DNA of 64,000 nt, from assembly GCA_039799905.1 (NCBI GenBank), contig JBDLRP010000045.1:1-64000 (forward strand), read 5' to 3'. Both the position numbers and the translations under genes were made by a program. Numbering within the stretch: position 1 is the first letter of the stretch; each line of letters begins with the position of its first letter. The notes under the pieces are model-generated. The model ran no database searches. It saw only the letters and a list, made by a program, of their open reading frames with translations, and was not told the origin of the DNA. Positions 6,971 to 16,916 of the stretch are shown in pieces. The stretch is from Pseudomonadota bacterium (lineage in GTDB: Bacteria > Bdellovibrionota_B > Oligoflexia > Silvanigrellales > Silvanigrellaceae).

Positions 6971-7822
6971 TTATTTTTGAAATTGCGGATGCGCGCGCAA
7001 CGCGGCCGTGATGGCTTTTTTGCTGTCTTCCGTTTCGGCGTTACAAAAGGGTTTTCCGGAGCGTTCGAAGGTTGCAAGAAAACCGGCAGGCAACGGGTCA
7101 CTCAGTTCATCCATACTGCCCGCAGCCATAATGGATTTGGCTTTTTTTCCGCTCGCAATCGTATGGCCGACAAACCATCCTGCCGCGGCAAGAGCCGCCT
7201 TGACGCATGTGGCGCTGGAATGTGTGATGAGGCGGGTTTGATTGTGGCTGCAGCTGCGGATTATTGTGAACAGGTCGAAGGTCCAAAGCCATGGATGACT
7301 GGCCGGAGAAAAGAAATCGAAAAAAATTGCATCAGCCTTTGGGTACGTGTTGTTTTTGCTGAAGCCGGAAATGGTTGAGCGGAAGTCCCCGCCGATGAAA
7401 TTCCATTCGAGAGATTTTCCCCGCACGCTCGGTGCGAGAACTTTATCCTCGCTGCAGGCTTGCTCGATAAAACTCTTATATCTGCGCGCACCGTCGAAAT
7501 ACTGCGAGGCCGAGAGCAGTGCGTGGAGTCCTTCTTTTTCAAGATCAAAACTGAATATCTGCAATTTTTTAAAGTTTGAGTCGGGTGAATGGAAGAAGTC
7601 GAGAAGTGCCAGCAATTGGGCGCCACAGCCCATTCCCACGTCAAAAACAACAAGTGATTCCTTGCCGCTCTCCTGCAGGCCGCTGTGGGCCATGTAGAGG
7701 TCTCGCGCCTCTTTTTCCGGACCAACGCTGCCGTGGAGAAGTTCTCCCGTCTGAAGGTGCCTGAAAGAGGCGACTCCGCTGTCCAGTACTTCAAGCACGT
7801 ATGCATTCCCGTCGCCGCTCAT
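6971..7822 (-). CDS. mnmD: MnmC N-terminal-like (MnmD) SAM-dependent methyltransferase
   Basis: GE..HGSVGPEKEARDLY, FDVGMGCG SAM motif, FFDFFSP..HP.LW, L.T.S.AT.V..AL..AG..V. Confidence 0.75.
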   Translation of the reverse strand: MSGDGNAYVLEVLDSGVASFRHLQTGELLHGSVGPEKEARDLYMAHSGLQESGKESLVVFDVGMGCGAQLLALLDFFHSPDSNFKKLQIFSFDLEKEGLHALLSASQYFDGARRYKSFIEQACSEDKVLAPSVRGKSLEWNFIGGDFRSTISGFSKNNTYPKADAIFFDFFSPASHPWLWTFDLFTIIRSCSHNQTRLITHSSATCVKAALAAAGWFVGHTIASGKKAKSIMAAGSMDELSDPLPAGFLATFERSGKPFCNAETEDSKKAITAALRAHPQFQK

Positions 7823-7986
7823 AAAACCTCGTTTGCACTTCTAGGTTTCCGCTGCGCCGTGATGGCACGAAAATCGGAGATTTTAAAGAGTTTTCAGAGA
7901 ATTGAGCTTGTGCTAGCCTGCCTGAACTGCAACGCTGGCCCGATTCGGAGCCCGCTTGCCCCTCAAAGAATGGAGTTCGTTGGAAA

Positions 7987-8694
7987 ATGAATTCGTCCGG
8001 TGCAGTTTTGGAAATTCAGAATCTCACGCATGCCTATCAGACGGGCACACCGATTTTGAACGTGGAAGAGTTCAAAGTCGCCAAGGGTGAAATGCTCTTC
8101 CTGCATGGGCCCAGCGGGAGCGGAAAGACAACCTTGCTGAGTTTGGTGACGGGAGTGTTGCCTGTGCAGGCAGGTCACGTTTCGGTTCTTGGGCAGCCGA
8201 TGAGCGGTGTTTCCGCCGCCCAGCGAGATGCTCTGCGCGCTTCGCGCATGGGTTACATTTTTCAGGTGTTCAATCTGCTGCCGTTCATGAGTGTTTTGGA
8301 AAATATTTTGCTGCCGCTGCAGATGAGTCGCGTCAAGGCTGCGCGTTTCGCCGATTCCGAAGCAGCCAAGATTGGCGCAAGAACACTTGCAGAGCGGCTG
8401 GGTATCGCTCATCTGCTGAACCGCCGCGCCGACGAACTGAGTGTCGGACAGCAGCAGCGAGTTGCAGCGGCGCGTGCCCTGATTGGCAGTCCTGAGTTGA
8501 TTGTTGCCGACGAACCGACGTCCGCGCTGGACGCCGACCTGCGTGAATCGTTTGTAAAAGTTCTGTTTGAACAGGCGCGCAGTCAAAACTGCGGTGTTCT
8601 GTTTGTCAGTCACGACAAATCACTGATGCCGTTGTTTGACCGGAGCGTCGCGCTGGCCGAAATCAATAAGGTTATGAAAGGAAAAGAGGCATGA
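7987..8694 (+). CDS. ABC transporter ATP-binding protein (LolD/MacB-type; ZrgB/PA4064-like)
   Basis: GPSGSGKTT, GYIFQVFNLLPF, LSVGQQQRVAAARALIGSP.LIVADEPTSALD, FVSHD. Confidence 0.93.
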   Translation: MNSSGAVLEIQNLTHAYQTGTPILNVEEFKVAKGEMLFLHGPSGSGKTTLLSLVTGVLPVQAGHVSVLGQPMSGVSAAQRDALRASRMGYIFQVFNLLPFMSVLENILLPLQMSRVKAARFADSEAAKIGARTLAERLGIAHLLNRRADELSVGQQQRVAAARALIGSPELIVADEPTSALDADLRESFVKVLFEQARSQNCGVLFVSHDKSLMPLFDRSVALAEINKVMKGKEA

Positions 8695-10880
8695 CTCTTC
8701 TTAAAATACTTTGGAAGAGCCTGTGGAACCGCAGGGTCACAACCCTGCTGACAATCGCGTCGATTGCGCTGAGTGTGACGCTTTTGCTCGGTATCGAGCG
8801 CATCCGAATGGGGGCGCGCGAGAGCTTTTCAAACACGATCTCACAGACGGATTTGATTGTCGGCGGAAAGGGCGGAACGGTTCAGCTGCTGCTCTACACT
8901 GTGTTTCGCATGGGCAGTGCAACGGGGAATATCTCCCACGAGACCTTCGAAAAATTCAGCCGCCATGGTGCAGTGCAATGGGTCATTCCCTACTCGTTGG
9001 GCGACAGTCACCGAGGTTTCCGTGTCGTTGGCACCAACGAAAAATTTTATGAGCATTATCGTTTCCGTCAGGACAAACGGGTGACTTTTTCAGATGGTCA
9101 GGCACCGGCTGATGTTCTTGAAGTTGCACTCGGAGCAGAAGTTGCCGAGAAGCTCTCTTACAAATTAGGACAAAGTATTGCCGTCACGCATGGTGTGACA
9201 GACGGTATCGGGCTTCTCAATCACGATGACAAACCCTTCAAGATTGTCGGTATCCTCGCCAAAACAGGCACTCCCATCGACCGTTCGCTTTATGTGACAC
9301 TCGAAGGACTGGAAGCCATCCATATGGATTGGAAGGATGGCGCACCGCCGCGCAAGGGTGAGGAGATTCCCGCAGCCAGTTTGCGCAAAGAGGAAATCAA
9401 GATTGGCCAAATCACAGCATTTCTTGTGCGAACAAAGAACCGTTTTGAGACCCTGAGCCTGCAGCGCGAAATAAATACTTATCCTGATGAGCCGTTGATG
9501 GCGATTATACCTGGTGTCGCATTGAGCGAGTTGTGGTCTGTGGTTTCCTATGCCGAAGACGGACTCAGGATTGTTTCTTGGAGTGTTCTGATCGTCGGAC
9601 TGTTGGCCATGCTGATTGCGATCTACACGTCATTGCAAGAACGCCGGCGTGAGATGGCTATCCTGCGCAGTGTCGGTGCAGGGCTTGGAAAAATTGTTTT
9701 ATTGCTTGTCTCGGAAGCCGTTCTTCTCACTGTTCTCGGGATTGGTTTTGGAATTGCATTCACCTATTCGGTTCTTTTCGTTTTGCAGCCGTTGATTGAA
9801 GCCAAGTTTGGCCTGCTGATTCCGGTGCGTGCGCTCAGCCAGCTCGAGTGGGTGTTTTTGCTCGCCGTGCTTGTCTCTGGGTTTTTTATTGGCTTGGTTC
9901 CGGCGCTGCGGGCCTACCGCAATTCACTCGCAGACGGACTCGCCGTTCGCTTTGCAATCCCGTTTTTGATTTTGCTTCTTCCTGACGTGTCACAGGCCGC
10001 AGATAAGAGACCGCAGGTCGCGGCGAGTGTCGCTTGGCTGCGTGAACTTGCCCGCGAGGTGACCTGCGACGGTCAGGGGATCGAGTTGCTTCCCGCACTT
10101 GCCGCTGCCGGCAGTGATCCTCACAGCTATCAGTTGACTCCGCGCGGTCGGATGCAGTGGTCAAAGGCTGACCTGCGTTTGGTTATCGGAGAAGGTTTTG
10201 AATCGTGGAACGAGAAATCTGCAGGTCCTGCGCAGAAATTATTCACGGCGACAAAAGGACTCAACCTGCGCAAAGTAGACGAGTCTGGTGAAGCTCCAGC
10301 ACTCGAGGCAGAGGCACACGGCCATGCTCACGAACATGCGAAGGGGGTCAGCAGGTTTGACCCGCACATCTGGCACTCGCCCCGCCTCACGCGTGAGGTT
10401 GCGCTCAATTTATACAATTTTCTTGTGCAAAAAGTCCCTGCAAAGCGCATGGAGTGGGATGCCTGCATGCGGCAATTTGTTCAAAAAACCAAAGCAGCAG
10501 AGAGCGAAATCCATAAAAAAATTTCGACCATCCCCTCTTCGCGGCGGGTGCTGGCGACCAACCACGACTCACTCGGATATTTTGCCGATGCATTCGGGCT
10601 GAAGGTCATCACGATTGCCGGGGTGTCCACCGAAGCTGTCGTGACCCCCGGACGGTTCAGGCGTGCCATTGAGTCAATCAAGAAAGAAGGAGTGCGGACG
10701 ATTTTTGTAGAGTCGTCCTCGTCTCCCGAAACGGTTCAGAAAGTTGCTGCCGAACTAGGCATTAAGGTGGGTGGTGAACTCCATACGGATGGGTTATCAG
10801 CTCCGGACAAGCCTGCTGGTACTATCTTGGGCTTGTGGCAAACCAACGCGGAAACCATTGTTTCCGGACTAAAACCCTGA
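8691..10880 (+). CDS. Fusion: MacB/FtsX-type ABC permease (ZrgC/PA4065-like, aa ~1-421) + internal signal-like linker + ZnuA/TroA-type metal-binding protein
   Basis: N-terminal SLWNRR.T.LLT..SIALSV.LLLG.ER...SF..TIS.TDLIVG and ERRREMAILRSVGA, ending YRNSLADGL.VR. Then FAIPFLILLLPDVSQA-A. Then DPHSY, a His-rich loop, DPHIW, NHDSLGYF and LHTDGL. Confidence 0.88.
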   Translation: MTLLKILWKSLWNRRVTTLLTIASIALSVTLLLGIERIRMGARESFSNTISQTDLIVGGKGGTVQLLLYTVFRMGSATGNISHETFEKFSRHGAVQWVIPYSLGDSHRGFRVVGTNEKFYEHYRFRQDKRVTFSDGQAPADVLEVALGAEVAEKLSYKLGQSIAVTHGVTDGIGLLNHDDKPFKIVGILAKTGTPIDRSLYVTLEGLEAIHMDWKDGAPPRKGEEIPAASLRKEEIKIGQITAFLVRTKNRFETLSLQREINTYPDEPLMAIIPGVALSELWSVVSYAEDGLRIVSWSVLIVGLLAMLIAIYTSLQERRREMAILRSVGAGLGKIVLLLVSEAVLLTVLGIGFGIAFTYSVLFVLQPLIEAKFGLLIPVRALSQLEWVFLLAVLVSGFFIGLVPALRAYRNSLADGLAVRFAIPFLILLLPDVSQAADKRPQVAASVAWLRELAREVTCDGQGIELLPALAAAGSDPHSYQLTPRGRMQWSKADLRLVIGEGFESWNEKSAGPAQKLFTATKGLNLRKVDESGEAPALEAEAHGHAHEHAKGVSRFDPHIWHSPRLTREVALNLYNFLVQKVPAKRMEWDACMRQFVQKTKAAESEIHKKISTIPSSRRVLATNHDSLGYFADAFGLKVITIAGVSTEAVVTPGRFRRAIESIKKEGVRTIFVESSSSPETVQKVAAELGIKVGGELHTDGLSAPDKPAGTILGLWQTNAETIVSGLKP

Positions 10881-10896
10881 GCGGATGTTGTACTGA

Positions 10897-11589
10897 ATGA
10901 GTTTAAGCTGGGAAAATCTGGTTGTTGGCTACGCGGGGCGGGAGGCGCTCAACCGGCCGTTTTCCGGCACACTCGAAGACGGCGGCATCTATGCCATTGT
11001 AGGGCCCAATGGATGCGGCAAATCGACTCTGCTAAAGACGTGGCTTGGCCTTATGCAACCACACTCGGGGATGGTCAGTCTCAATGGACAGCCGGTTGGT
11101 CCGCGCGAGGGCGTCCTCACCTACGTCCCGCAAACTCACAAGGTCAACCGCTACTTTCAGATCAGCATTTTTGATTTTGTCATGCAAGGGTTCGGCCGAC
11201 GGCCGCCTGAGCGAAGCGATGCTCTGCAGCAAGTGCGCGAGGCTCTGGTGCAGTGGGAGCTCAGCGCCGATGCCGATCAGTCGTTCCACTTGCTGAGCGG
11301 CGGGCAAAAAACACGCGCTTTAGTCGCGCGCGCTATACTCTCCAAGCCGAAGATGATCTTTCTCGATGAGCCTCTCGCCAATCTTGACCAATGCTGTCAG
11401 GAAAAACTCATGAACACTCTGCACGTTCTGGCTCACCGGCAGAACATCTGTGTGGTGATGGTGGACCATCATTTTGAGGCGTACGAGAAATTTCTTTCTG
11501 CCAAATTTGTCTTCGAGCGCTCGCACAACGAGGAGATCTGCTCGATTCGCTACGAACCCAAGGACGACACATGCTGCAGGACTCCCTGA
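10897..11589 (+). CDS. znuC: Metal ABC transporter ATP-binding protein (ZnuC-like)
   Basis: GPNGCGKST, TYVPQ, LSGGQ, FLDEP, VDHH; lies between the ZnuA-like domain and a ZnuB-like permease. Confidence 0.8.
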   Translation: MSLSWENLVVGYAGREALNRPFSGTLEDGGIYAIVGPNGCGKSTLLKTWLGLMQPHSGMVSLNGQPVGPREGVLTYVPQTHKVNRYFQISIFDFVMQGFGRRPPERSDALQQVREALVQWELSADADQSFHLLSGGQKTRALVARAILSKPKMIFLDEPLANLDQCCQEKLMNTLHVLAHRQNICVVMVDHHFEAYEKFLSAKFVFERSHNEEICSIRYEPKDDTCCRTP

Positions 11590-12452
11590 TCGATTTGACC
11601 ACTCTGGCGGCATTCTGGGATGCGGACTTCGCACGGATGGCATTGCTGTGCACGCTTTTGGTTGGTCTGATGTGCGGTTTGTTGAGTCCGACGATCGTCC
11701 TCAAGCAGCGGGCCTATACCGGCGATACGCTGGCACATTTGGTCTTTCCAGGAATTGTCGCAGGGTACTTCATGTCACTGGGTTTCGAGCTTCCGCTCTG
11801 GGCGTCGCTGATCATCGGTGCCTCTGTGACCGGCTTGCTGGGCAGTGTGCTGGTGGAAAAGCTCGAGAGAATTTTGTCGCTTCCTCCAGATTCAGCCGCG
11901 GTTGTGACTCTGACGGGATTCTTTGCCAGCGGGGTGGTTGCGGTCTCAAAGGTGCGCGGGACGCGCATTGATCTGGAACGATTTTTATTCGGTGATGTGC
12001 TCACTTTATCAGTTTCTGAAGCCGTCTTGATAGCTGTTGCGCTTGGCTGCGTGGCGCTGACTCTGGGGCTTCTGCGAAGGGATTGGGACGCTTGGCTTTC
12101 GGATGGTGAGTTCGCGCTGCTCGTGGGTTTCCGCGTTCGGCTGATTGAACGGCTGTTTCCGATACTGGTCACTGCGGCGGTGCTGACAGGTTTGTTTGCA
12201 GTTGGTGGATTGATGATGTCGGCCCTGATGGCACTCCCTGCTGTGATATTGCCTCCAAAGTCGGCACTTTCATGGAGAACCGTCGTGCTGAGCGTCTCTT
12301 TAGCCCTTCTTGGACTGATCTTTGCCTTTGCGCTCGATTGGCCCGTCGGCAGCACGATCGTCTTGCTCGGCTTCATCCTTGTTTTGATAAAAGCCATCGT
12401 GGTAAGCCTTCGCCATCGTGCGGTTGTGCAAAAGATTCAAAGAGTTTCCTAG
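11571..12452 (+). CDS. znuB: Metal ABC transporter permease (ZnuB / ABC-3 family)
   Basis: GDTLAHLVFPG, DLERFLFGDVL, DWPVGSTIV; multiple transmembrane segments. Confidence 0.85.
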   Translation: MLQDSLIDLTTLAAFWDADFARMALLCTLLVGLMCGLLSPTIVLKQRAYTGDTLAHLVFPGIVAGYFMSLGFELPLWASLIIGASVTGLLGSVLVEKLERILSLPPDSAAVVTLTGFFASGVVAVSKVRGTRIDLERFLFGDVLTLSVSEAVLIAVALGCVALTLGLLRRDWDAWLSDGEFALLVGFRVRLIERLFPILVTAAVLTGLFAVGGLMMSALMALPAVILPPKSALSWRTVVLSVSLALLGLIFAFALDWPVGSTIVLLGFILVLIKAIVVSLRHRAVVQKIQRVS

Positions 12453-12466
12453 CGGGAGTGCTTCCC

Positions 12467-13954
12467 ATGTCTGATTCTGTATTCGAGATCAAAAGAAATA
12501 AATTTTTGGAGCAACGTGAGCGTGGCAACTTGGCCGACAGCTACGCCAAGACTCACACCGTTGAACAGGCGCTCGCCGTTCCTGAGGGCACCCGCGATGT
12601 CGCTGTTGCAGGGCGAGTGGTCGGACTGCGCACGATGGGGAAAATCCTGTTCGCACACATCTTCGACCTCAGCGGCCGCATGCAAATCTGTGTGCGCAAA
12701 ACTGAGGAATCGCCAGAGATGTTCGACTCCTTTGTGGCTGATGTGGCGGTTGGCGATTTCGTCGGAGTCACCGGCGAAATCTTCCGTACGAAAACCAATG
12801 AAATTACCGTGCGTGTTGAGCAATATCAGCTGCTCAACAAATGCCTGCGCACGCTGCCAGAAAAATATCATGGCGTCGAGGACATCGAGACCCGCTACCG
12901 TCAGCGCTATCTCGACATCATCATGAACACTGAATCGCGCGAAGTGTTTCGCAAGCGTGTCGAGATTGTCCGTTCATTGCGTCGATCGCTGGAAGACGCG
13001 GGATTTCTTGAAGTCGACACTCCGGTTCTGCAGACGCAGCCATCAGGCGCGCTTGCACGACCATTTCATACTCATCACAACGCACTCGACATCGCCTGCA
13101 CACTGCGTATCGCGCCAGAAACCTACTTGAAGCGCTGCATCGGAGCGGGATTCGACAAAGTTTATGAATTTGCGCGCTGTTTTCGCAACGAAGGAATTTC
13201 TGCGACACACCTGCAGGATTTCAGCATGCTGGAGTTCTACGCTGCGTATTGGAATGCTGATGTCATGCGCAACTTTGTTGCCGACATGATTCACAACCTC
13301 ATCAACCGGGTTTTCGGCACCGCGCAGGTCAAATTGCATGGCCATGACGTCGATTTCGCCGGACAGTGGCCGGTGTACGACTACAGCGATCTCGTGCTGC
13401 AGGACTGCGGCATCGACATCCGCGTCGAGTCCAGCAAGGAAAAACTGCTGGCCGCACTCAAGAAAAAGAACATTCACCTTGATGACCTTGATTCCATGAA
13501 CTGGGCCAATACGGTCGATGCATTGTATAAAAAAGTGACCCGACCCAAGTTGATTCAGCCGTGCTTCATTGAGCGGTATCCGGCCGACATGGCACCGCTT
13601 GCGCGGCGCAACGCCAAAGACCCGCGCTATGTGGATATGTGGCAGTTTGTTGTTGCAGGCGTAGAAATCGTCAAAGCTTATTCCGAGTTGGTTGATCCGC
13701 TCGATCAGCGTGAGCGGTTCGAAGAGCAAATGCGCGCGCGTGCTGCTGGCGATGAAGAGACCATGCCGATGGATGAAGATTACCTGACTGCCATGGAACA
13801 CGGGTTTCCGCCGATTGCCGGTGTGGGCATTGGCATCGACCGGCTCACCATGGTGTTGTGCGGATGTGACAACATCAAGGACACAGTGCTGTTCCCGTTG
13901 ATGCGGCCGGCACCTGCCGCAACCGCTTCCCAGGCAGAAGCAGAGCAAAAATAA
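12467..13954 (+). CDS. lysS: Lysine--tRNA ligase (class II)
   Basis: RYRQRYLD, LRIAPETYLKR, FRNEGIS..H..DF.MLEFY, AYSEL.DP..QRERF, GIGIDRL. Start moved to ATG 12467. Confidence 0.97.
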   Translation: MSDSVFEIKRNKFLEQRERGNLADSYAKTHTVEQALAVPEGTRDVAVAGRVVGLRTMGKILFAHIFDLSGRMQICVRKTEESPEMFDSFVADVAVGDFVGVTGEIFRTKTNEITVRVEQYQLLNKCLRTLPEKYHGVEDIETRYRQRYLDIIMNTESREVFRKRVEIVRSLRRSLEDAGFLEVDTPVLQTQPSGALARPFHTHHNALDIACTLRIAPETYLKRCIGAGFDKVYEFARCFRNEGISATHLQDFSMLEFYAAYWNADVMRNFVADMIHNLINRVFGTAQVKLHGHDVDFAGQWPVYDYSDLVLQDCGIDIRVESSKEKLLAALKKKNIHLDDLDSMNWANTVDALYKKVTRPKLIQPCFIERYPADMAPLARRNAKDPRYVDMWQFVVAGVEIVKAYSELVDPLDQRERFEEQMRARAAGDEETMPMDEDYLTAMEHGFPPIAGVGIGIDRLTMVLCGCDNIKDTVLFPLMRPAPAATASQAEAEQK

Positions 13955-13985
13955 TTCATCCGGAAGGCAGGGAGGCCTGTTCCTC

Positions 13986-16916
13986 ATGAGTGATTCACAG
14001 CACCCCGGAACCGAGCGGCCGCGTCTCTTTGTTTTCGATGGAATGGCGCTTTTATTCCGCTCTTTTTATGCGATGGGCCGGGCCGGACTCACGTCGCCCG
14101 ATGGAATGCCGACCGGCGCAATTTATGGCTTTCTCAAAATTCTGCAGAAGGTCGTCAAAGAGCAAAATCCGACACATGTCGCCGTAACCTGGGACCGTAA
14201 AGAAAAAACCTTCCGGCATGAATCTTTCGCTGAATACAAGGCAAACCGATCTGAAACTCCGCCCGAATTGCTGACGCAGATTCCGGTCATCAAAGAGCTG
14301 ATTGAACGCTCGGGAATTCCGACGTTCTCGCTCGCCGGTTACGAAGGCGATGACGTGATTGGCACCATTGCCAGACGTTTCGAGCAAAACGGTGACGTGT
14401 TTATTGTCTCGGCCGACAAGGATTTCATGCAGCTGGTCAACGACCACATCAAGCTCTTTTCACTCAAGGCCGGTGACGATTACGAAGTTCTCGGCCGCGG
14501 TCACGTTTTTGACTACTTTGGTGTTCCGCCTGAACAGGTCTGCGAAGTTCTGGCAATTACCGGCGACAAGGTCGACAACATTCCGGGTGTCAAAGGCATC
14601 GGTGACAAAGGTGCGGCCAAGCTGATTCAGGAGTTTGGTTCTGTTGAAAATATCTATGCCAACCTCGACAAAATCAGCAATCCGCGGCTGCGAGGACTGC
14701 TTGAAACGAGCCGCGACAATGCTTTGCTCTCGCGCCGTCTTGTTGAAATTCACACGTCTGTTCCTCTCGATGTCGATGAATCTCTGATGCGCTATTCTTG
14801 GGAACAACTCTCCCACAATCAGCAGCTGCGGCACGAGATTGAAGCGCTCGGAATGAATTCGCTGCTCAAGGGGTTTGCTGCGGCCGCAACGGGGCCTGTT
14901 GCAAAAAAGGTAAGTAAATCTGCGACGCGAAAGTCCGCTGCCGAACCTGCTGATGGGTTGTTCGCACAGCCGTCGGATGCGATAGCGGGTGAATTGTTTC
15001 CCTCGGCTGACGATAAGCCTGCAGCAGCAACACAAGCCGCCGACGCTGACTGGAACCGGCGCGATTATGTTTGCATCTTGACCAGAAGCGAACTCAACGA
15101 CCTGGTTGAAAAAATTGCGTCAGCAGACACTTCTTGTATTGCATTCGACACAGAAACCACCGGACTCGACTTCATCGAGCACAAGCCGATTGGCTGCAGT
15201 TTCTGCTTTGCCGAAGGAGTTGCCTATTACGTTCCGCTCGCCGAAGTGCATCTTGAGGGAGGAGATTTGTGCGCGGGCCTGCCGCGTGCGGAGTTCTCGG
15301 CCCGCCACGCAATCGATCAGATTTCCGATGCGCTGAAAAAACGCTCGGCAACGCTGGTTGCGCACAATCTCAAATTTGATTTGCACCAGATGAAGAACCT
15401 GGGTGTCGACTTGGGTGACGCTCCGATTGCCGACACCATGATAGCCGCTTGGATGCTCAACCCCTCGGGTGGCGGCTACGGACTCGATGCACAGACGTTG
15501 AAGGTTCTTGGTCTCAAAAAGATTCCAACAACGGCACTGATTGGCAAAGAAGCCGGACGACAGTCAATGACTCAAGTGCCGCTCACGCAGCTCAGTGAAT
15601 ACGCCTGCGAAGATGTCGATGCCACCCTGCGCCTGTGGAATGTGTTGAGCAAAAAACTCGCGGAACAAGACAAACTTTTGCAGCTGTTCCGTGAAATGGA
15701 AATGCCGCTCTTGCGTGTTCTGGCAAAAATGGAACGGACCGGGGTGCATATCGATTCAGATTATCTCGCAGATCTTGCCGGCGATGTGCAGCAGAAAATT
15801 AGCGAAATTGAGCGTCAGATTCATGCACTCGCCGGACAGGAATTCAACATCGGCAGTCCCAAGCAGCTCGGCGGCATCCTTTTTGACGTCTTGAAAGTCC
15901 ATGAGGCGCTTGGATTCAAGGGAAAACTCGCCAAGACCACCTTGGGCTATAAAACTGATGCCGCGGTGCTCGAGCAGTTTCAGGCGCATCCGGTTGTGGC
16001 TCTCGTTCAGGAATATCGTGAGCTTTCCAAACTCTTAAGCACCTATATCCTGGTGTTGCCGCAATTGGTGAAATCTTCCACGGGCAGAATCCACACCAGT
16101 TTTCATCAAATCGGCACCGCAACAGGCCGTCTATCGAGCAGCGATCCCAACTTGCAGAATATTCCTGTCCGCACGGAACTTGGTAAAAAGGTACGGCAGG
16201 CCTTTTGCTCCTCCGATCCTTCGAAAGTCATCGTATCGATCGACTATTCGCAGGTGGAATTGCGCGTGATGGCGCATTTGGCTCACGATGAGGCGATGAT
16301 TGCCGCATTCAAATCCGGAGCAGATATTCACAGGCAAACCGCGGCAAAAATTCTCGGTAAAAATCCGGAGCAGGTGACGGCCGAAGAGCGCGGCAACGCA
16401 AAGACTATCAACTTCGGGATTATCTATGGGATGGGTGCGCAGAGGCTTTCGCGTGAGCAAAAAATCCCGCTCTCTGAAGCCAAGTCGTTTATCGAACGTT
16501 ACTTCCTGAACTTTGCAGGGGTGTACCGCTACCTTGAGTCGCAGCGGCAAAAGGCGCGCGACATGGGAGTCGTTCATACCTTTTTCGGACGGCCGAGGCC
16601 GGTGGACTTGTCGCGGGCGTTTAACCCGGGAGAGGTCAAAGCCCTCGAAAACATCGCCATCAACTCGCCGATTCAAGGCACCGCTGCCGATATCATGAAG
16701 TTCGGTATGCTGCGCGTGGCAGCGGCACTCGCACAAAGCGACCTCAAGGCCGAGATGCTTTTGCAGGTGCACGACGAACTGGTGTTGGAATGTCCACGCG
16801 AAGAGGTGGACGCAACTGCTGCACTGTTGAAGAATGCCTTGGAAGGCGCAGTGGAGTTTTCGATTCCGCTGGTTGCCGAGGTCGGCTTTGGCCGGACGTG
16901 GTTGGAGGCAAAATAA
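13986..16916 (+). CDS. polA: DNA polymerase I
   Basis: 5'-3' exonuclease (EYKANR, EGDDVIG, GDKVDNIPGV.GIG), 3'-5' exonuclease FDTET, polymerase motifs TGRLSSSDPNLQNIP, DYSQVELR, KTINFGIIYG, QVHDEL. Confidence 0.98.
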   Translation: MSDSQHPGTERPRLFVFDGMALLFRSFYAMGRAGLTSPDGMPTGAIYGFLKILQKVVKEQNPTHVAVTWDRKEKTFRHESFAEYKANRSETPPELLTQIPVIKELIERSGIPTFSLAGYEGDDVIGTIARRFEQNGDVFIVSADKDFMQLVNDHIKLFSLKAGDDYEVLGRGHVFDYFGVPPEQVCEVLAITGDKVDNIPGVKGIGDKGAAKLIQEFGSVENIYANLDKISNPRLRGLLETSRDNALLSRRLVEIHTSVPLDVDESLMRYSWEQLSHNQQLRHEIEALGMNSLLKGFAAAATGPVAKKVSKSATRKSAAEPADGLFAQPSDAIAGELFPSADDKPAAATQAADADWNRRDYVCILTRSELNDLVEKIASADTSCIAFDTETTGLDFIEHKPIGCSFCFAEGVAYYVPLAEVHLEGGDLCAGLPRAEFSARHAIDQISDALKKRSATLVAHNLKFDLHQMKNLGVDLGDAPIADTMIAAWMLNPSGGGYGLDAQTLKVLGLKKIPTTALIGKEAGRQSMTQVPLTQLSEYACEDVDATLRLWNVLSKKLAEQDKLLQLFREMEMPLLRVLAKMERTGVHIDSDYLADLAGDVQQKISEIERQIHALAGQEFNIGSPKQLGGILFDVLKVHEALGFKGKLAKTTLGYKTDAAVLEQFQAHPVVALVQEYRELSKLLSTYILVLPQLVKSSTGRIHTSFHQIGTATGRLSSSDPNLQNIPVRTELGKKVRQAFCSSDPSKVIVSIDYSQVELRVMAHLAHDEAMIAAFKSGADIHRQTAAKILGKNPEQVTAEERGNAKTINFGIIYGMGAQRLSREQKIPLSEAKSFIERYFLNFAGVYRYLESQRQKARDMGVVHTFFGRPRPVDLSRAFNPGEVKALENIAINSPIQGTAADIMKFGMLRVAAALAQSDLKAEMLLQVHDELVLECPREEVDATAALLKNALEGAVEFSIPLVAEVGFGRTWLEAK

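Follow-up and report, generated by a model that had tools for sequence, protein, structure and literature searches.

The 64,000-nucleotide stretch of DNA analysed here (the window; contig JBDLRP010000045.1 of assembly GCA_039799905.1, from a member of the Silvanigrellaceae) contains a gene which raises the question of how many proteins are made from one reading frame. The open reading frame (ORF) at positions 8691-10880 (+) encodes 729 amino acids and is not interrupted by a stop codon. Its first half (residues 1-420) is a Zrg/PA4065-type MacB permease and its second half (residues 437-729) a metal-binding protein of the ZnuA type; the corresponding Pfam domains are MacB_PCD (18-209), FtsX (294-411), and ZnuA (443-725). 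According to our analysis, which is based on sequence comparisons, the product is a polyprotein that is probably cut by signal peptidase I after Ala436, releasing free periplasmic ZnuA to the ZnuCB importer encoded next to it. The fusion was found in one genus of freshwater bacteria, where one gene would likely yield two proteins. All coordinates and motifs given for this ORF in an initial annotation of the DNA were confirmed: YRNSLADGLAVRF occupies positions 9915-9953, the codon of Arg420 positions 9948-9950, and the codon of Ala436, the predicted -1 residue, positions 9996-9998.

The fusion is real and does not result from an error in sequencing or assembly. Relatives were studied in a set of 40 genomes, of which 12 belong to the same genus. 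Among these 12, a full-length, stop-free ORF (68-78% identity) was present in 10, and a query with the junction found an open frame in 11. In G009, the junction lies in an open frame and the ORF is then cut by the contig end; in G003, the contig terminates inside znuC and does not reach the fused gene. The protein collection contributed 27 full-length clusters with 60-96% identity, several of them near-identical, and two partial clusters spanning the junction. For loci with an identity of at least 55%, the reading frame continued without interruption between permease and binding domain in 16 out of 16 cases (seven from metagenomes and nine from genomes, overlapping partly with the same-genus set). 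Furthermore, two independent metagenome contigs, each from another study, run across the junction with neither indel nor stop: X4 covers positions 9620-10466 with four differing letters and no gaps, and X6 covers positions 9850-10089 with one differing letter and no gaps, both being assembled contigs rather than raw reads; X9 does not bridge the junction. The probability that the ORF reflects such an error, or a recent damaging mutation, is negligible, as the fusion is common to independent contigs and to genomes down to 60% identity and as the metal-site motifs remain conserved in the fused proteins. A sequencing error was rejected because independent contigs, same-genus genomes, and protein clusters all show an open junction, and the proposal that permease and ZnuA are genuinely joined holds. 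Within the fused clade, no reversion to two genes was seen. Three short matches (67-71% identity) and three short cluster members were considered as split genes and look like fragments; judged from the protein alone, these six start at internal Met codons within a domain and have no signal. In the databases, the fused proteins are annotated as permease or as hypothetical, which misses the predicted released protein.

The fusion arose once, between adjacent genes. In the other Silvanigrellaceae genera, permease and znuA are two genes. The unfused permeases stop just after a motif ending with G-L-x-x-R/K-x, and in most loci the stop is located one or two residues past the same arginine. Among the 11 sister-genus genomes with a permease, znuA comes next on the same contig in nine, four of which show an ATGA overlap; the gene order is Fur-family regulator (divergent), zrgA, ATPase, permease, znuA, znuC, znuB, lysS, polA. 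The fused permease halves are monophyletic, with an SH-aLRT support of 99 in a tree of 39 rows and of 100/100 in a tree of 26 rows from which long branches and near-copies were left out. The fused ZnuA halves are monophyletic as well (support 100). These findings point to an ancestral operon with adjacent permease and znuA genes, often joined by an ATGA overlap, in which stop and start were lost once in the ancestor of the genus; the last arginine of the permease thereby came to serve as the positively charged n-region of the former ZnuA signal. A second lineage combining FtsX/MacB and ZnuA was not found among 39 matches of 400-1276 amino acids covering the ZnuA region, nor was the fused architecture found in the best 120 of 6844 full-length matches; both searches scored 8000 word-sharing candidates, and distant cases may be missed. 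Single genomes deviate from the common arrangement. In the sister-genus genome G020 (L016 / L035:5431-6354), no hydrophobic signal precedes the first strand of the separate znuA, whose frame overlaps the stop codon of the permease in the +1 frame; this gene may be damaged or mis-assembled. In G018 (L027, G018:C923), lysS directly follows the permease with no znu genes between them, and in G019 (L039) a short ATPase-like remnant is located between permease and znuA.

For the analysis of the linker, 26 distinct junctions were compared, changes were mapped on a tree of 25 fused proteins, and codons were examined in 16 DNA junctions. If ZnuA were translated separately from a start inside the open frame, the fusion would exist only on paper; we regard this as very improbable. 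Leu417 is encoded by TTG in six of the 16 DNA junctions and Leu413 in four, but at no position among residues 407-421 does ATG, GTG, or TTG occur in more than six of them, and the window has no such codon there. Its in-frame codons TTG (9966 and 9972) and GTG (9987) sit within or past the hydrophobic core. Moreover, none of the 16 junctions contains GGAG, AGGA, or GAGG in codons 412-420, and the permease would be left without a stop codon. An internal restart was rejected, as starts are unconserved and the tested ribosome-binding motifs are absent. The initial annotation had stated that the binding protein lacks an ATG and a ribosome-binding site of its own; in agreement with this, no start codon is conserved in the 16 junctions.

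What, then, is the junction? The initial annotation had described an internal signal with a basic residue, a short hydrophobic core, and a -3/-1 site; this pattern is present and, in addition, under selection. The common order begins with Arg, Phe or Leu, and two hydrophobic residues; after an invariant Pro come five or six further hydrophobic residues, for a core of about 10 residues. Position -6 is then Pro or Ser, position -3 small, and position -1 Ala. In the window, these elements are the invariant Arg420, a hydrophobic core (421-430) with the invariant Pro424, Pro431 (-6), Ser434 (-3), and Ala436 (-1). Position -1 is Ala in all 26 junctions, at R+16 in 23 and at R+17 in three, a count partly guided by the rule that the site was chosen as Ala at R+16, else at R+17. 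Position -3 is occupied by Ser (17), Ala (6), Gly (1), Val (1), or Leu (1), i. e. by Ser, Ala, or Gly in 24 of 26 junctions; position -6 is Pro in 19 and Ser in five (24 of 26), and +1 is Lys, Ala, Ser, or Gly, never Pro. At each of the positions -2, -4, and -5, seven to 11 different residues were found. On the tree, Ala436 underwent no change, compared to 10, 13, and 11 changes at -2, -4, and -5. Residues 421-440 constitute the fastest region compared (6-7 changes per site versus 2.3 in the permease and 3.5 in ZnuA), and Pro424 never changes either. All four Ala codons are used for the -1 residue across the 16 DNA junctions, which argues for selection on the residue itself. The same pattern is given by the pockets of LepB as described in section 2.4.1 of PMC9360617: S1 is small and S3 slightly larger, which fixes -1 and -3 and leaves -2, -4, and -5 free. 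The fusion is kept in the genus, and the linker varies but retains the signal-peptidase-I pattern.

Further properties of the segment are in accord with a signal. Judged by hydropathy, it falls short of a true helix (best 19-residue mean 1.75 versus 2.41 for the fourth helix of the permease). In 18 of the 26 junctions the first ZnuA strand begins four residues past the -1 Ala, so that an uncut protein would have no tether to dock on ZnuB. Free ZnuA orthologues of the sister genera possess signal peptides which, as seen by eye, end in Ala at a similar distance from the first strand, and a type I signal peptidase is encoded in the genome. As a control, the whole genome was scanned with a strict signal pattern derived from the junction. 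Of 1972 long ORFs, 18 had a match at the N-terminus; among the 46 ORFs with at least three helices and a long soluble tail, it occurred as an internal site behind a polytopic domain only in the fused gene, which makes for a weak control, as the pattern was built from this gene's own junction. In the subclade of L023 and P0025-P0028, a low-complexity insertion of about 35 residues, opening with a conserved S-N-[IV]-D-V-A-V-S, is located right after the predicted cleavage site.

We propose the following route. The C-terminus of the permease would be cytoplasmic, as suggested by four hydrophobic segments and the MacB fold. The short fifth segment would enter the Sec machinery in N-in/C-out orientation and carry ZnuA to the periplasm. 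There, as the selection on -1, -3, and -6 suggests, LepB would cut and a stub of 16 residues would stay on the permease. With regard to gene order and to what is known of the family, the released ZnuA would deliver Zn, possibly Mn or Fe, to ZnuB/ZnuC, and the permease would cooperate with the Zrg-type ATPase, ZrgA, and DUF3299. Overall, parts of two separate transporters would be synthesised 1:1. This ratio is odd, because cells normally produce more of a binding protein than of its permease. In E. coli, AmiA is described to have been released, via the Tat route, by means of a signal-peptidase site engineered behind a polytopic membrane domain (10.1101/111781).

Alternatively, the signal could remain uncut, or be cut in part, and act as a fifth anchor, such that ZnuA tethered on the MacB permease would still feed ZnuCB. 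We consider this unlikely. Binding domains with an anchoring helix exist, OpuA being the case described in PMC7673798; the best 19-residue hydropathy reaches 2.2 in some members, the 17 residues from Arg420 to Ala436 would be barely enough to cross the membrane, and five junctions contain the long flexible insertion. However, an anchor needs neither Ala at -1 nor a small residue at -3 nor Pro at -6 while the residues between them drift; the uncharged run comprises only 11 residues in 11 of the 26 junctions, and 18 have no linker. The initial annotation had named release and tethering side by side; the selected cleavage pattern favours release, and tethering appears less favoured. It is improbable, too, that the fusion couples the two systems, with ZnuA, tethered or released but bound, exchanging metal with the periplasmic domain of the Zrg-type permease. 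Equally improbable is the specific version that ZnuA, as the tail of this permease, shuttles metal between the periplasmic domain and ZnuCB; if true, Zrg/PA4065 systems would be periplasmic metal loaders or unloaders for Znu and not stand-alone importers or exporters. A coupling would agree with the lack of reversion in the 16 loci mentioned above, with the location of zrg and znu genes in one operon across the family, with the faster evolution of the ZnuA half on the stem, and with the proposal, made in PMC9820375, that the periplasmic domain of ZrgB meets a metal-binding protein. On the other hand, ZrgA is retained in this genome and in 11 of the 12 same-genus genomes and DUF3299 in all 12, the cognate ZnuCB is encoded directly downstream, and the fusion has a single origin between neighbours, the two word-based searches having found no second lineage. 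Given the retention of ZrgA and DUF3299, ZnuA as a substitute for a lost ZrgA was rejected. A physical link of the Zrg transporter to Zn uptake by way of the fusion, as proposed initially, is tenuous: the genes were already adjacent, ZnuA has its own importer downstream, and ZrgA and DUF3299 are retained elsewhere.

Besides the rule-guided choice of the -1 site, several observations weigh against cleavage and release. Another operon of the window's genome encodes a second PF01297 protein. The ratio of stem to within-clade branch lengths is 1.11 for the ZnuA half versus 0.53-0.76 for six neighbouring genes or gene parts; this longer stem is a modest hint of changed function or adaptation, or it may instead reflect missing intermediate taxa. 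The 35-residue insertion in five junctions could act as a tether, and the conserved Ala436 could have a structural role. The invariant Pro424 is not accounted for by cleavage alone; one may speculate that it helps the short core to insert or allows trimming of the stub by an intramembrane protease. The AlphaFold model of the whole protein (one helix at 384-428, pLDDT below 50 at 415-438, pTM 0.48) gives no domain orientation; it is uninformative at the linker and decides nothing.

With respect to the nature of the two halves, the permease shares 49.9% identity along its entire length with a P. aeruginosa permease from a DUF2796-ATPase-permease-DUF3299 operon. It has four hydrophobic peaks (17-35, 294-312, 335-353, 388-406), a MacB periplasmic core domain between the first and the second one, and its own ATPase upstream; four membrane segments are likewise described for ZrgB/MacB (PMC9820375, PMC11481552). 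Homology and the four-helix MacB layout support the Zrg/PA4065 assignment made initially, but the Vibrio names had been reversed there: as used in two papers, ZrgB is the permease and ZrgC the ATPase. The function of the family is disputed, with Zn import reported for Vibrio and pyochelin-cobalt export for Pseudomonas (PMC9820375, PMC9817125, PMC11481552), and ZrgA is proposed to be the system's own binding protein (PMC9820375). If the two halves of the fused protein also interact, this would bear on what Zrg/PA4065 transporters do.

The binding domain has intact PF01297 metal-site motifs, the AztC/YfeA/PsaA fold, and a short His-rich loop; by analogy to the family, H478, H559, H625, and D700 are the likely metal ligands. 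Cys459 and Cys592 are invariant across 19 aligned fused and free domains, which fits a periplasmic location. Its best NCBIfam matches are AztC (153.7 bits) and MntC (136.5 bits), both below the curated cut-off; because this holds for all NCBIfam scores, the metal is not fixed. The genes of the cognate ATPase and ABC-3 permease adjoin, and in five of the 11 relatives with the fusion the fused protein is the only PF01297 match. The fused protein of G001 (L009, G001:C1:213073-215247; P0019) has Tyr instead of the second metal-site His and Arg instead of the Asn of NHD, and the genome encodes two further PF01297 proteins; for both reasons, this domain may be relaxing. The second PF01297 protein of the window's own genome belongs to an operon (L031, G000:C29 35000-39500) with an outer-membrane-like protein, a lipoprotein-like protein, an ATPase, and a permease; upstream of it lies the palindrome TGAGAATTAATTATCA, which presumably resembles a Fur-type box.

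Coordinates of the fused gene, its parts, and the adjoining transporter genes in the window
Feature	Position	Strand	Remark
LolD/DevA-like ATPase of Zrg-type MacB system	7987..8694	+	overlaps fused gene by 4 nt
Fused gene, 729 aa	8691..10880	+	Zrg/PA4065-type MacB permease, internal signal, and cluster A-I metal-binding protein
Permease moiety, residues 1-420	8691..9950	+	ends in family C-terminal motif SLADGLAVR
Putative internal signal peptide, R420-A436	9948..9998	+	26 distinct junctions; predicted cut after nt 9998
ZnuA/TroA/AztC-type binding domain, residues 437-729	9999..10877	+	
ZnuC/AztA-type ATPase of metal importer	10897..11589	+	
ZnuB/AztB-type ABC-3 permease	11571..12452	+	likely partner of the released binding protein

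Beyond position 12452 follow genes which we take to be lysS and then polA. The genes of ZrgA (PF10986) and DUF3299 are not part of the fused gene's operon; both are encoded on other contigs. In sister genera, zrgA stands in the permease operon. Here, it is found at G000:C21 87530-90067 (L032, L155), away from the permease, clustered with a Fur-family gene and a gene whose beginning resembles that of a COG0523 GTPase. In some sister genera, a Fur-family gene flanks the operon. A conserved element, TTTCAAAGAGTTTTCAG ... TGTG-N-TAG, is present at window positions 7860-7925 and in the matching upstream regions of L003-L011 and sits between the operon and a divergent gene at 6971-7822 (-); its appearance suggests a promoter and not the palindromic site of a repressor. 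Visual inspection of nine aligned upstream regions, there being no Zur-site model for the lineage, revealed no conserved palindrome, and a promoter and terminator scan of positions 7700-14100 gave counts not above those of shuffled sequence. The RNA run X19 yielded a single 244-nt contig inside the permease part, which does not include the junction and is uninformative on the fusion.

The closest parallel is FbcH of Bradyrhizobium japonicum, which is reportedly a cytochrome b-c1 precursor cut at an internal signal. In both cases, a polytopic membrane protein is followed in frame by a retained signal and an exported protein, and the fused gene has the features of an internal-signal polyprotein: a single conserved frame, no separate start, a signal with a -3/-1 site, and a predicted N-in/C-out topology. 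In contrast, FbcH comprises two membrane-bound subunits of one complex, whereas the fused gene joins parts of two ABC systems, its second product would be a soluble periplasmic protein, and its cleavage is predicted. Descriptions of natural bacterial polyproteins that are cleaved at an internal signal are rare. A 2026 review, where it treats internal Tat signals of membrane proteins, lists them as uncleaved (PMC13673990), and no paper joining MacB, ZnuA, and the fusion was found in a search of the open-access literature. With 26 natural variants of the internal signal and clear selection on the cleavage pattern, this family constitutes an unusually strong comparative case, easily testable in E. 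coli; it would illustrate that a gene boundary in an operon can be replaced by a protease cut which fixes a 1:1 synthesis of parts of two transporters. A different fusion is seen in a family of proteins of about 583 residues (P0127, P0173-P0180; a cluster of nine), in which an ABC-3 (ZnuB) permease is joined to a ZnuA domain. The junction looks like an internal lipoprotein signal with a hydrophobic run ending in L-A-A-G-C, which makes this family a candidate for a polyprotein or for a fusion of cognate parts tethered by lipid.

With ZrgABCDE of Vibrio and PA4063-PA4066 of P. aeruginosa, as far as these are described, the system shares the ATPase, the four-helix MacB-type permease, and the presence of ZrgA and DUF3299 in the genome; it differs in carrying a cluster A-I protein fused to the permease and in having zrgA and the DUF3299 gene on other contigs. 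As in ZnuABC, AztABC, and TroABCD, a binding protein with a His-His-His-Asp motif is followed by an ATPase and an ABC-3 permease, but here the binding protein lacks its own gene start and is synthesised as the C-terminal extension of an unrelated permease. OpuA (PMC7673798) and GlnPQ likewise have a binding domain in one chain with a permease. There, however, it is tethered to its own importer, whereas the partner in the fused gene is an FtsX/MacB-type permease and the cognate ABC-3 permease is encoded by a separate gene; unlike the anchoring helix of these systems, the junction described here carries a selected cleavage pattern.

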